A DNA stretch of 64,000 nt, taken from an uncultured Pseudomonadota bacterium (GTDB lineage: Bacteria > Pseudomonadota > Alphaproteobacteria > RF32 > CAG-239). Within the stretch, counting starts at the first letter, position 1; every line of letters starts with the position of its first letter. Shown here piece after piece: positions 31,201-37,200 of this stretch. Made by a program: the position numbers. The stretch is from NCBI GenBank assembly GCA_902763155.1, contig CACWQS010000002.1:240203-304202 (forward strand), read 5' to 3'.

Positions 31201-34200
31201 ATAAGGTAGAACATGTTATCGAGGCCTATTGGGCTTGGGGCATATCCAAATGGGCTACCTTAACGCCTGATATTCAGTTCTATATTCATCCGGCACTCAA
31301 TCAAAGTTCAAACTACGGAACCGCCACTTCTCTGCGCCTCACGGTAATGTTCTGATAAACATACTCTTTTCTTTAATTTTTTGCTTTACTTTATGGAAAA
31401 AAAGATGATTATAAAAAGTATTGTAAATAAATAACGGAGAAGAGGTTTTTATGCGCAAAATTTTAAGTGTGCTTTGTCTGCTGATTATTGCCGCTTGTGC
31501 TAATAACGAGGCAAAGGTTGTACCGGGGATAGTGCCGAATACGGCGCAAGAAACGAAGGTTATTAAGGTGATGCCGAATAATATTATTGGGGCGGTGGAG
31601 AGGATATATCTGCCGCCGATGAAATCAGCATTTTTAGCACGCATAGATACCGGTGCTACTACGTCTTCGCTTGATGCTGAGAATGTAAAACAGTTTGAAC
31701 GTGACGGCGATAAATGGGTATCTTTTACCATTGTTAACCGCGAAACCGGAGAAAAATACACTTTTGAAAAACCGTTGGTAAAGGGTATTTCGATTCGTCG
31801 TGCCGGAGAAAACGAATACCGTCCGATTGTTAATATGGATGTTAAAATGGGTGGCGAAAAGTTTAAGGCAAATTTCACGATAGCCGAACGTGAAAAGTTT
31901 GACTATCAGATGTTGGTCGGACGAAATATTTTAAGCGGTCGTGCCATTGTTGACGTTTCAATTTCCAACACACTTAAGTAACGGGACGGGGACTATATGA
32001 AAAAGCTATATTCGGTTAGAGGCATTTTAACAATATTTTTGGTCATAACGGTTGTATTTGCGGTGGCTATGACATGGTATAAAATTGCGGTGTGGGGATT
32101 TAGTTTTCGTCCCTCTGCCAAATCGACGGTTTGGACGGTTGATGCCCATATTTCTTTTAAGCCGAGCGGTGATCCGATAGAGGTTTCGCTTTCTAAGCCA
32201 TCTGCCGGTGTTGCATATAAGATTTTGAGCGAAGATACGGTGGCTAAAGGTTATGAAATCATTAGAGATGATAAGAACAATCGCATTTTGATGAAGTCTA
32301 AGGGCAGACGTAACAATCAAGATTTATATTATCGGATTATGCTTTACGATAATGAAGATTCTACCGGAAAAGTATGGGACGACAAACCGGCAAAAGTTCA
32401 AAAACCGCAGTTTGAAAATGCCCAACAAGCCGAAATGGTTAATGCCATTTGGGCTCTGGCTGATGCTGAAGAAGGCAGTGCCGCCAAACGTATTATAGAG
32501 CTCTTGAATGAAGAAAATTTGGCTCCGGAAGTAGATGCCTTTTTGCCGGTGAAAAAAACGCCGAAAATTATGGCTGATAAGATTATATGGTTGCTCTCAA
32601 CCAAAGGGATTGCCGCGCGAATTGTCCGCGGGGTAAAGCTGATGGAGAAAAAACGCGCCGCCAATGCCGATATAATGCTTGAAGTTTATGAAGGTAGTAA
32701 GTGGCAGGTTTATAATATAGAAACCGGAACAATGGGGTTACCGAAAGATTTTGTGGTGTTTCAGCGTGGCGGAGTATCGCTTTTAGATGTTAGTGGCGGT
32801 TATAGTTCAGAAATCAAATTTTCGGTAGTGAAATCTGTAATTTCAGCTTTCAAAATGGCAGGAAGCCGTGCCAAGTACGAAAACAGCGGTTTGTTTAATT
32901 ATACCATTTACGATTTACCGTCGTTAGAACAAAATACGCTTAAATGGCTGATGATATTTCCGCTGGGGATTTTGCTGGTTGTAATCTTACGTAACGTCGT
33001 CGGTATTTCCACCATGGGGACATTTACTCCGATGCTGATTGCTATGTCTTTGGTGCGTACCGGCTTTATTTCCGGCTTTATCTGCTTTAGTGTAATTATT
33101 GCGCTCGGGTTACTTATCCGCACCTTGCTTACTCGCCTTAATTTGCTTTTGGTCCCAAGAATTTCTGCAGTGGTGATTTTTGTAATTATCATTATGCAAA
33201 TGTTGACGGTGTTTGGTTATCGGGCCGAATGGAAAGTTATTGCCTCGGCGGCGTTTTTCCCGATTATCATTACAGCATGGATTATTGAACGTGCTTGCAT
33301 TACTTGGGAAGAAGAGGGTGTGCGCAACGCTACCAAACAAATTGTCAATACCTTGTTTGTGGCGGTAATTACCTATTTTGTAATCAGCAGTGCTTATATT
33401 CGCCATATTATGTTTGCCTTCAATGAGTGGAATTTTGTAATATTGGCATTAGTAATGTTGCTCGGCACTTATACCGGATATCGTCTTACTGAGCTGAAGC
33501 GCTTTGCGCCGTTAGCAGGGAAAAAATAATATGCAAGAATGGCTAAAGAAATATTTTGAATTGCTATCAATGCCGGAAAAACTGCGTAATTGCGGTGTTT
33601 TGGGGATGAATGCCCGTAATTATTTCGTTATTTCCAAGCACAACAAACGCTCGCTTTATCCGCTAGTTGATGATAAAGTGCAAACAAAGAAATTGGCAAA
33701 CAGCATAGATATTAACACTCCACATATGATCGGTGTAATCGAACATCAATATGAAGTTAAAAATTTACTGCAAATTGTTGCCGGTCATGATGAATTTGTA
33801 ATTAAACCGGCGCATGGCAGTCAAGGTAAAGGTGTGTTGGTAATCAAGCACTACGAAAATAATGAGTTTGTTACTACATCAGGTAAAAAACTGACTTTTA
33901 ACGACGTTTATCAGCATATTTCCAATCTTTTGAGCGGTTTGTATAGTTTGGGCGGGCAATATGATGTAGCACTGATTGAAGAACTTGTGCATTTCAGTGA
34001 TGTGTTTAAGAGTTTCAGTTATCAAGGTATTCCTGACGTGCGGTTGATTATCTACAAAGGCTTTCCGATTATGTCAATGACGCGCTTGGCGACTAAAGAG
34101 TCGGACGGTCGCGCAAATCTGCACCAAGGTGCCGTAGGAGTGGGGCTTAGCATGAACAGCGGTAAGGCGGTGCAAGCGGTGTTGCATAATGTGCCGATAA

Positions 34201-37200
34201 CTCACCATCCTGATACCGGTGTTGATTTAATGACCTTGCAAGTACCGTTTTGGCGCGAACACCTGATGATCGGCGCACAGGCTTATGAAATGACCGGTTT
34301 GGGCTATTTAGGTGCCGATATTGTGCTGGATAAAGAGCGTGGTCCGATGATGTTGGAGTTAAATGCTCGTCCCGGTTTGGCGGTGCAAATTGCCAACGGT
34401 CGCGGTTTGAAAGAAGCAATTAAAAATGTAGATAAATATTATCCGAGAGGATTAACTGCCGAACAAAGAGTTGATTTCGTCTTGAATAATCATTTTTAGC
34501 TTCCTAAATATTGTTTAGATATTTGATTGTAAGGAGATAAAAAATGACAGATTTATTAGGAAAAAGCCAGACCAAAAACATTTCCAAACCGAATACCCAA
34601 AAGATTGCCGGCAACCAAACCAAAAAGTTGGAAATGAGCGATTCGCGCGCCAAAAAAATTAAACATTCTTATAATGTTAAAGATGCTGAAAATGCTTTAC
34701 TTTTACAAACCAGATATGGTGATGTAATAATTGAAATGTTGCCGAATGTGGCGCCGAACCATGTAGCGCGCATTAAAGAACTGGTGCGGCAGGGGTTTTA
34801 TAACGGATTAAAATTTCATCGGGTAATTGAGGGATTTATGGCGCAAGCCGGTTGTCCGCGCGGCGATGGTACCGGCGGCAGCGGTAAAAAGCTCAAAGCC
34901 GAATTTAATCGTATGCAGCATAAACGCGGTATTGTTTCCATGGCACGGGCAATGGATCCGGATTCGGCAGATAGCCAATTTTTCATTTGTTACGCCGATT
35001 GTCCATGGCTTGACGGGCAATACACCATTTGGGGCAATGTGGTAAGCGGTATGGAATTTGTTGATATGCTGAAAAAAGGTTTCGGACCGAGCGGAATGGT
35101 AAGTGATCCGGACGAAATTGTAGCAATTTCGGTTATTGCCGATATTTAATTTTTTATTTGAAAAAAGTGCGTAATAAAATTCGTAAGCGATTATATATAT
35201 TCAGGCGCGGTTTGGGAGAGATTATTTCCCATCCGCGTTTTTGCATCATCTCAAACAAGCAAAAACAAGTATTTTTAACATAGTGCAAAGCAAAAGTATC
35301 TTTTTTAGGGAGTTTATTTAACAGGCGTTCTGCTTTTAGAAATGCCAACTCGGCTTCTCCGGCTAAAAGTTGTCGTGCATAAGCAAAATTAGCATCTTCG
35401 AGCGCTTGTAAAGGTTCAAAAGAAGTAACATCTGCTTGCTTTAATATATCTTTGGGTAAATAAAGCCTTCCGGCTTTAGCATCATCTTTTACATCGCGCA
35501 AAATAAGAGTTATCATCACAGCACGTCCTAAATCTCTGGCAAGTTCGCTGTTAGCAGCCGAACTTTTACCGTTTATAATTTTTAAAGCTAATTCGAAAGG
35601 TATTATTGCCGAAGCTGCAAGGTATTGCTCAAACTCAATTCTCTCCGGCGCTTGCATAGGTTTAGGAACATTTAAAGCTGCACATTCTAAAATCTCGGCC
35701 CATTGTTGTTGCGGTAAATCAAAACGCAGACAATTCTTATAAATTTTGCGTCCGATATTGGTAGCCGGAACATTTTTTTCATATATATTGGCCAGCTCTT
35801 CACGCCAAGCCTTGATTAACTCTTGCTTTTCCTTTACCGGCATAGCAGAGTGAGCCAAACTTTCAATATGACGACAGAAAGCAAACAAGGTAAAAAGCGC
35901 TTCTCTTTTAGGCTTAGAGATGCCGCGCATACACCAAAATAATGCCGGTTGCGATTTTTTTACCAAATCTCCCACAGATAACATCTTATATGCTTTTACC
36001 TTTCTGAATAAGATTAAAATATGGGTAGATTATATAAAACAAACTGTTTTTCGTCAAGGCGTGCAAATCTTTATTGTTGATTATTTTCTATTTGCTCAAT
36101 CCAACGTTCAAAATCTGCCAAAGCGCGGCGGCAATAGGCCTCTTTGCGGTCAGCACCTTTAATTTTTCTGAATTTACCGTTTGGTGTAATTTCGCCTTGG
36201 ATAGTGGGAAAAATACCGAAATTTATATTCATCGGCTGGTAATCTGCAGTAGTATCGTGCAAATGTGAGAGCATGGCACCGCTGGCGGTGGTTGCCGGAG
36301 GAACTGTCGGTGTTTTATTTTGAGCCAGACAAGCGGCAAAATATCCGGCCATCATTCCGACATTTGCACTTTCTACATATCCTTCACACCCGCTGATTTG
36401 TCCGGCAAACATAACATTAGGCTGAGTTTTAAGCCGCAAAAACTCGTCTAAAAGCAGAGGGCTTTGGATAAATGTATTTTTATGAATACCGCCAAAGCGG
36501 GCAAACTCGGCATTTTCCAAGCCCGGAATTTGGCGGAAAATACGTTGTTGCTCGCCGTATTTCATCTTGGTTTGGAAACCGACAATGTTGCGTAATGTAT
36601 CTTCTTTATTGTCTTGACGCAATTGCACAACGGCGTAAGGTTTTTCCGTGCTATGCGGATTAGTTAACCCCACCGGCTTCATCGGCCCGAATAAGAGCGT
36701 GTCAACTCCGCGTTCTGCCATTACTTCTATCGGTAAACAACCATCAAAATATTGCGGTGTTTCAAAATCGTGGAAAGGCATTTTTTCGGCAGCTAAGAGC
36801 GCCTCAACAAAGGAGTAGTATTGCTCTTTGTTTAGCGGACAGTTAATATAATCATATTTATCGCCTTTATCATAGCGCGATTGATACCATGCCTTTGAAA
36901 AGTCGATGCTCTCTTTATACACTACCGGCGCAATGGCGTCATAAAATGACAATGATTTGTGCTCTATTTTTTGTAAAATTGAATTGATAAAATTCGAACT
37001 GGTTAAAGGGCCGGTGGCAATAATGGTAAGCGGTGCGTCAACACTTGGAAATTCGGCAACTTCGCCCTCAATCACTTCAACCAAATCTGTTGCCAACAAT
37101 TTTTGCGTTACCATTGCGGCAAAACCTTCTCGGTCAACAGCTAAAGCTCCGCCGGCCGGAACTTTTGTCGCATCGGCGGAAGCCATAATCAGCGAGCCGA

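Follow-up and report, generated by a model that had tools for sequence, protein, structure and literature searches.

A three-gene operon at 31451-34499 of the 64,000-nucleotide stretch analysed here (contig CACWQS010000002.1, assembly GCA_902763155.1, from an uncultured alphaproteobacterium; the whole stretch is referred to below as the window) is very probably an orthologue of rloABC, a system first described in Pseudomonas. On balance, the operon probably makes and then trims an acidic, polyglutamate-type product of the cell envelope. All three genes lie on the forward strand. The first, rloA (31451-31981), encodes a lipoprotein retropepsin-like aspartic peptidase of 176 amino acids (aa). 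The second, rloB (31997-33529), encodes an inner-membrane protein of 510 aa, and the third, rloC (33531-34499), a cytoplasmic RimK-related ATP-grasp ligase of 322 aa. rloA and rloB are separated by 15 nt, and the rloB stop and the rloC start by 1 nt. An earlier sequence-only reading had reported three co-oriented, tightly packed genes here, with coordinates that proved exact.

The three products were searched against the Pfam and NCBIfam profiles, and the domain identities proposed in the sequence-only reading were confirmed by matches far above the curated cutoffs. The rloA product matched Zn_protease/DUF785 (PF05618) at 113 bits against a cutoff of 27 (E 1e-32). The rloB product matched Transglut_i_TM (86.9 bits, cutoff 25) followed by 7TM_transglut (275 bits, cutoff 25). 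For the rloC product, ATPgrasp_ST was matched at 287 bits (cutoff 31, E 2e-85) and TIGR02291, 'alpha-L-glutamate ligase-like', at 417 bits (cutoff 314). NCBIfam already holds models for RloA1/2/3, RimB and RloB. Its best matches to the first gene, each of them below the model's cutoff, were RloA3, RloA2, RimB and RloA; the second gene was matched best by 'osmotic stress tolerance membrane protein RloB'.

The operon had previously been thought experimentally uncharacterised. This is outdated, as rloABC was named in P. aeruginosa and has been examined there by genetic, structural and enzymatic work (PMC12239564), and a phenotype has been reported for a Shewanella homologue (PMC12096838). In P. 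aeruginosa PA14 the genes are PA14_41690/41710/41730 (Lormand et al., mBio 2025; PMC12239564), and rloA, rloB and rloC encode a secreted DTGA retropepsin, an inactive transglutaminase fused to a seven-transmembrane (7TM) domain and a cytoplasmic ATP-grasp protein, respectively (PMC12239564). Crystal structures solved for RloA from P. fluorescens and RloA2 from P. aeruginosa comprise retropepsin-like dimers with a basic substrate channel, and in vitro, Pseudomonas RloA cuts reporters with 8 or 10 consecutive glutamates and leaves those with 6 or fewer uncut (PMC12239564). A triple rloA1-3 deletion strain does not grow when salt is left out of the medium and is also defective in biofilm, beta-lactam and cell-shape traits; deletion of rloB or rloC rescues all of these defects (PMC12239564). 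In hypo-osmotic medium, loss of all RloA is thus lethal only when RloB and RloC are present, which places both upstream and implies a product that is toxic if uncleaved. The locus in the window shares the three domain architectures, the A-B-C gene order, the RloA signal peptide, the DTGA motif and the basic residues with the Pseudomonas operon. The same gene order was found in Aeromonas and Legionella triads. RloB in the window is approximately 30-33% identical to the sampled gammaproteobacterial homologues, and RloC is 51% identical to the product of the Aeromonas gene in the rloC position.

Relatives of the locus were collected by scanning one genome per GTDB species, which gave 80 loci with RloB 52-89% identical. 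Genes were counted over these 80 loci by tblastn together with all-against-all clustering of open reading frames (ORFs). All loci came from uncultured Alphaproteobacteria, with records including 'uncultured Rhodospirillaceae RUG769', 'Acetobacter sp. CAG:977', 'Azospirillum sp. 51_20' and 'Ca. Scatocola'. The related records are titled as metagenome-assembled genomes from rumen, deer, sheep, goat, yak, horse, chicken and human gut, in keeping with the host-associated lifestyle first proposed for this organism. Co-occurrence of the three genes in related genomes had been set beforehand as a test of the prediction; rloB and rloC were found in 80/80 loci and rloA in 78/80, both misses being contig ends, and the prediction was retained. 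The outer flanks of the window (SAA-like, HpnD-like and TrmFO-like genes) were found in 0 other loci. As the triad is intact in 78/80 species while the outer flanks are shuffled, it is under strong selection as a unit.

A search for a small substrate ORF near the triad had been suggested. None was conserved in the block across 81 loci, and the spacers within the triad leave 15 nt and 1 nt. No ORF of the 64-kb window encodes a polyglutamate run; the only acidic runs are Asp-rich, at 22756 and 57584, distant from the operon.

The RloA leader, MRKILSVLCLLIIAAC, ends in the lipobox LIIAAC, whose cysteine (Cys16) is invariant in a clade alignment of 78 sequences. The DTGA motif occupies residues 66-69 and was present in 79/79 clade sequences. 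With the PF05618 match, these features bear out the initial description of the first gene product as a lipoprotein with a DTGA motif. Matches in the PDB were 9g59 (5e-15), 9g58 (~1e-15) and 2pma, of which 9g59 and 9g58 are RloA crystal structures. Residues R64, R124 and R147 align to K46, R114 and R137 of P. aeruginosa RloA (RloA_Pa), with a clade-wide conservation of at least 95%; R92 was unmapped. The substitutions R114A and R137A have the strongest effects in Pseudomonas, abolishing both RloA activity and complementation (PMC12239564). RloA in the window, which keeps the catalytic aspartate and the basic residues predicted to coordinate polyglutamate, is therefore predicted to be an active protease. 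Aeromonas RloA is likewise a lipoprotein, so the lipid anchor is not peculiar to this clade. Between the lipidated cysteine and the protease domain (residues 17-30, 31499-31540) a near-invariant V-P-[GA]-I-V-P motif was observed (VPGIVP here), in which P25 is invariant. This linker is put forward as a candidate docking peptide, with the periplasmic domain of RloB as one possible partner.

RloC has no transmembrane segment. Its motifs RxNLHxG and ELNARPGL align to those of E. coli RimK (4iwx/5zct), as local matches only (E ~2e-4). With these RimK-type Mg/ATP motifs retained, RloC is predicted to be an active ligase. The N-terminal domain of RimK, approximately 100 residues, is missing: residue 47 of RloC aligns to RimK residue 98-118.

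An AlphaFold2 (AF2) model of RloB was calculated with 45 homologues (predicted local distance difference test score, pLDDT, 73.8; predicted template modelling score, pTM, 0.50). The model comprised an anchor helix (residues 7-33), a beta-sandwich (45-118), an alpha/beta core (142-279) and seven helices (309-508). RloB was assigned eight transmembrane segments in total, with an extracytoplasmic part of approximately 280 residues. The middle protein had been described as a periplasmic domain with seven C-terminal transmembrane helices, and this description holds with the addition of an N-terminal anchor helix. Loss of either the transglutaminase-like fold or the 7TM topology on structure prediction had been named as grounds for rejecting the prediction; both were present in the model. 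The extracytoplasmic region 26-318 contains no cysteine and one histidine, so a Cys-His-Asp triad is impossible, and the transglutaminase-like domain is, from its sequence, catalytically dead. The Transglut_core profile gave a weak match in only 3/45 RloB family members (E 0.02). Because one N-terminal helix is followed by seven more, the RloB tail is cytoplasmic. This tail (490-510) is basic, with Y495, R496, E499, K501, R502 and F503 invariant. No solved structure matches RloB by sequence, and a weak structural resemblance of its transmembrane domain to RnfA/NqrE is without sequence support.

A direct connection between RloB and RloC was indicated by an archaeal locus. On the Halobacterium sp. 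DL1 plasmid CP007061.1 (locus L084, 4812-6566), a single ORF of 584 aa fuses 7TM_transglut (residues 51-243) to ATPgrasp_ST (286-557). This ORF is covered by no feature in the annotation table shown. It shares both families with the bacterial operon and differs from it in being archaeal, in forming one polypeptide and in lacking a transglutaminase-like domain and an adjacent retropepsin gene. The fusion supports direct physical cooperation of the cytoplasmic end of the 7TM domain with the ligase, and suggests that the 7TM and ATP-grasp proteins are the core of the system. Taken with the invariant cytoplasmic tail of RloB, it leads to a predicted RloB-RloC contact. The 1-nt distance between rloB and rloC is a further pointer to such coupling.

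The three proteins thus appear intact, are predicted to lie in the cytoplasm, the inner membrane and the periplasm, and keep the residues expected for ligase and protease activity. The polyglutamate specificity of RloA and the upstream action of RloB and RloC are presumed to carry over from Pseudomonas by homology. As originally proposed, a peptide or poly-amino-acid product made and processed at the membrane remains the best general account, given that the gene identities and topology were upheld. One specific mechanism, export and trimming of free polyglutamate, is put forward tentatively, at somewhat less than an even chance. RloC would dock on the cytoplasmic face of RloB and polymerise alpha-L-glutamate into a chain that is free or built on a primer. 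Through its 7TM domain, RloB would pass or present the chain to the periplasmic side, where the dead transglutaminase domain would hold it. RloA would then cut the chain, so that the load of periplasmic polyanion, and hence envelope and osmotic homeostasis, would be balanced and toxic build-up prevented.

Several observations weigh against this assignment of product and mechanism. The RloA-type NCBIfam models gave 111, 78 and 68 bits, where the cutoffs are 210-280, and the NCBIfam RloB model gave 276 bits, where the cutoff is 900. These cutoffs are narrow and Pseudomonas-centred, and the RloB alignment is nonetheless full-length and collinear (protein residues 10-504 to model positions 7-503 of 508). 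The third gene had been called a RimK-type ATP-grasp; the ATP-grasp assignment and RimK-like character stand on TIGR02291 and the RimK-type motifs, whereas the models of the RimK family proper failed. RloC belongs to ATPgrasp_ST and not to RimK proper, scoring 40.1 bits against a cutoff of 143.4 for TIGR00768 and 25.8 bits against 331 for PRK10446. Because it falls outside the RimK family proper, its glutamate specificity is an assumption. The RloB model is of moderate confidence only, and the translocator role is putative. Mature RloA is cysteine-free beyond the lipidated Cys16 and hence lacks a disulfide, whereas a disulfide pair has been called conserved in periplasmic RloA orthologues (PMC12239564); Legionella 2pma likewise has no aligned cysteine. 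The flap of RloA is also approximately 11 residues shorter than in the Pseudomonas enzymes. Because of the missing disulfide and the shorter flap, the substrate reach of RloA may differ. A window free of polyglutamate runs fits a non-ribosomal product without identifying that product.

Other readings of the triad were weighed against free polyglutamate. RloC could instead polyglutamylate the C-terminus or a side chain of an envelope-destined or membrane protein, possibly RloB itself, with periplasmic trimming of the tag by RloA. Such a pathway would correspond, in secreted form, to the action of RimK/RimB on ribosomal protein S6, a precedent that speaks in its favour (PMC11957791). RloA cleaves polyglutamylated RpsF in vitro, and protein tagging was left open by the authors of the rlo study (PMC12239564). 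The missing N-terminal domain is the large acceptor-binding domain of RimK, so RloC may rely on a protein partner, which also suits protein tagging. Set against these points, the conserved block offers neither a candidate acceptor nor a conserved small ORF, and its spacers (15 nt and 1 nt) are short; the RloB C-terminus is basic and neither acidic nor Glu-terminated; and a polyglutamate-tagged protein would need to cross the membrane after modification. Protein tagging is considered unlikely.

It is quite unlikely that the operon serves amidation of the cell wall or of a glycan. RloC would in that case add amino acids to a sugar- or lipid-linked envelope precursor, the dead domain of RloB would bind stem peptides or glycan, and RloA would act indirectly on wall-remodelling factors. 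The name of the Pfam family, 'sugar-transfer associated ATP-grasp', agrees with such a role, as do the cell shape, beta-lactam sensitivity and osmotic lysis phenotypes in Pseudomonas, from which a peptidoglycan link was suggested (PMC12239564), and the over-production of membrane vesicles by a Shewanella rloB mutant (PMC12096838). The conserved block contains no glycosyltransferase or Mur-type gene, and both the basic channel of RloA and its strict need for at least 8 glutamates point to a polyanionic peptide instead (PMC12239564). That the three genes are unrelated neighbours without a common function has next to no probability. No point was found in its support, and it is refuted by the synteny (triad in 78/80 loci amid shuffled flanks, with the order kept in Gammaproteobacteria) and by the archaeal 7TM-ATP-grasp fusion, with the epistasis observed in Pseudomonas as a further argument.

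The proposed polyglutamate product may be compared with other systems. RimK and RimB resemble RloC and RloA in that an ATP-grasp ligase is paired with a polyglutamate-cutting, DTG retropepsin-like endopeptidase (PMC11957791). RimK, which polyglutamylates ribosomal protein S6, also produces free poly-alpha-L-glutamate of up to approximately 28-36 residues and is stimulated in this by its retropepsin partner RimB (PMC11957791). RimB differs in being cytoplasmic, with no signal peptide, and the RimBK system has no membrane component, whereas here the protease is a lipoprotein and a membrane protein gene lies between protease and ligase. The two ligases also differ in family, as RloC falls below the RimK models TIGR00768 and PRK10446. 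In Pseudomonas, rimB has no genetic interaction with rloA (PMC12239564). The protein disrupted in the Shewanella study, HM2192 ('inactive transglutaminase fused to 7TM'), belongs to the same family as RloB and shares an envelope phenotype, namely membrane-vesicle over-production; a single gene was studied there (PMC12096838). Within the 64-kb window, neither rloA nor rloC was found to have a paralogue (a RimBK pair).

The poly-gamma-glutamate systems PgsBCA/CapBCA of Gram-positive bacteria follow a logic analogous to that of rlo, with a membrane-associated synthetase, surface polyglutamate and a dedicated hydrolase (PgdS/CapD). They differ in having a Mur-ligase-like ligase and a gamma linkage, and in lacking a retropepsin and a transglutaminase-7TM protein. 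No homology of the rlo locus to PgsBCA/CapBCA was detected here.

In Pseudomonas, rlo has a bearing on survival of osmotic stress, on tolerance to beta-lactams, on biofilms and on cell shape, and the system was framed as gammaproteobacterial (PMC12239564). The host of the operon in the window is a gut/rumen alphaproteobacterium. Since a large clade of uncultured, gut-associated Alphaproteobacteria has it fixed, the operon is not only gammaproteobacterial. The system itself was already described (PMC12239564); new here are the alphaproteobacterial host, the intact triad across the clade, a promoter-like site, clade-specific neighbours and the archaeal fusion. The locus therefore extends a recently described system and does not overturn its current understanding; its main value lies in comparative leads on the product of RloB and RloC.

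Transcription signals were sought around the operon. A promoter-like site upstream of rloA, CTTTAC-N17-GATTAT (31384-31412, +), is a consensus match only in the window and was kept in 23/39 related spacers between rloA and an upstream porin gene, against 0.75 expected from shuffles. A generic scan of 29900-35400 for sigma-70 promoters and terminators gave counts not above shuffles, and the 31384-31412 site was not listed by it. A second promoter-like site, CTTGAA-N17-CTAAAT (34481-34509, +), precedes a downstream cyclophilin gene (ppi), and its -35 element overlaps the end of rloC. This pattern was found in 60/70 related rloC-ppi spacers (0.8 expected from shuffles) and is similar to the sigma-70 consensus of Alphaproteobacteria, CTTGAC-N17-CTATAT. 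The conserved CTTCCTAAATA is more plausibly read as part of this promoter-like site. An anti-Shine-Dalgarno hairpin coupling ppi translation to rloC was considered and rejected, as its folding did not stand out from that of shuffles (z = -1.29). Downstream of the porin gene, 30/39 short related spacers contain a GC-rich hairpin with a T-run, against 7.8 expected. The terminator-like hairpin is absent from the window (31356-31383) and from its closest relatives (L002, L003 and L006), so transcription of the porin gene may run on into rloABC here. No terminator follows rloC, and read-through into ppi may likewise occur. An RNA leader or riboswitch for the operon was rejected, as no Rfam family was matched at gathering scores anywhere in the window.

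The porin gene (30222-31355, +) lies directly upstream of rloA and encodes an OprB/AaxA-like outer-membrane porin of 377 aa, with a Pfam OprB match, a Sec signal peptide and a C-terminal phenylalanine; the NCBIfam AaxA model gave 281 bits, its cutoff being 600. The gene is present in 66/80 related loci. In 18 more divergent loci (among L045-L071), an opposite-strand ORF of approximately 330-350 aa lies between the porin gene and rloA and is sometimes duplicated (e.g. L045, 4233-5282, -). Downstream of rloC, ppi (34544-35149, +) encodes a cytoplasmic cyclophilin-type peptidyl-prolyl isomerase of 201 aa (Pfam Pro_isomerase, 5e-42), with an AAGGAG Shine-Dalgarno sequence 7 nt before the ATG, and is present in 74/80 related loci. 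The next commonest genuine flank gene is present in 28/80.

The cyclophilin carries a Lys-rich N-terminal extension of approximately 50 residues (34544-34700), found clade-wide, in which about three 'sETKnL' repeats precede SETRAKKIKHSY. When 1.84 billion representative proteins were searched exhaustively with phmmer, the extension gave 24 matches: proteins that share it, of which many are short fragments, and one chance plant leucine-rich-repeat protein. A wider distribution was therefore rejected, the extension being essentially absent beyond the clade among these representatives.

The porin and the extended cyclophilin distinguish this locus from the Pseudomonas operon, as do the missing disulfide and shorter flap of RloA. 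Neither gene was found beside the Aeromonas or Legionella triads. The Aeromonas caviae triad is flanked by genes for a CmoB-like methyltransferase and a LysR regulator, and the triad on Legionella adelaidensis plasmid 5 by a hypothetical protein gene and two C1 (papain-like) peptidase genes. The latter lie directly 3' of the plasmid-borne triad on the opposite strand (L083, 7432-9728). The adjacent porin gene, isomerase, lipoprotein and alphaproteobacterial occurrence are unmentioned in the Pseudomonas study, where 'porin' concerns outer-membrane permeability only (PMC12239564).

The triad, porin and cyclophilin may form a clade-specific, envelope-spanning module of five genes, comprising the ligase, the cyclophilin with its Lys-rich tail, the 7TM protein, the lipid-anchored protease and a dedicated porin, although this is rather improbable. 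The porin may then serve as the exit or entry route for oligo-glutamate made by RloA, and the polycationic extension of the cyclophilin may bind or chaperone the polyanion or the ligase. If so, poly-alpha-glutamate would be an exported envelope polymer or osmolyte of Gram-negative bacteria with its own route of export and turnover. A five-gene operon running from porin to cyclophilin is weakened by the hairpins after the porin gene (30/39) and by the promoter-like sites before rloA and ppi. Given these hairpins and separate promoter-like sites, the porin gene and ppi are conserved neighbours and not proven co-transcripts, and the triad alone, with its own promoter-like site, is the operon proper, as first delimited. 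The clade-specific porin and the extended cyclophilin are nevertheless leads to the fate of the product. A reading of the block as a defence system was rejected, as the anti-phage models of PADLOC gave 0 matches among the five block proteins (porin, RloA, RloB, RloC and cyclophilin).

Two further observations were made upstream of the block. An ORF of 236 aa at 29332-30042 (-), called as 214 aa in the source contig, contains a genuine serum amyloid A (SAA) domain at residues 133-209. The Pfam SAA model was matched at 62.7 bits (cutoff 30.8), and phmmer gave 3.7e-11 to mouse SAA3 (4q5g) and 1.4e-10 to human SAA1. The ORF is found in 0/80 other related loci. Here a gut/rumen bacterium encodes a vertebrate acute-phase domain, which was possibly acquired from the host. 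Approximately 6 kb upstream of the operon, at 23561-25771 (+), lies the gene for a type IV secretion system (T4SS) coupling protein of 736 aa (TraG/VirD4-like; Pfam T4SS-DNA_transf and TrwB). The Asp-rich run at 22756, FDDDDDDDFDLD, is encoded in the ORF before this gene. From the T4SS coupling protein, a conjugative or integrated element may lie near the operon.

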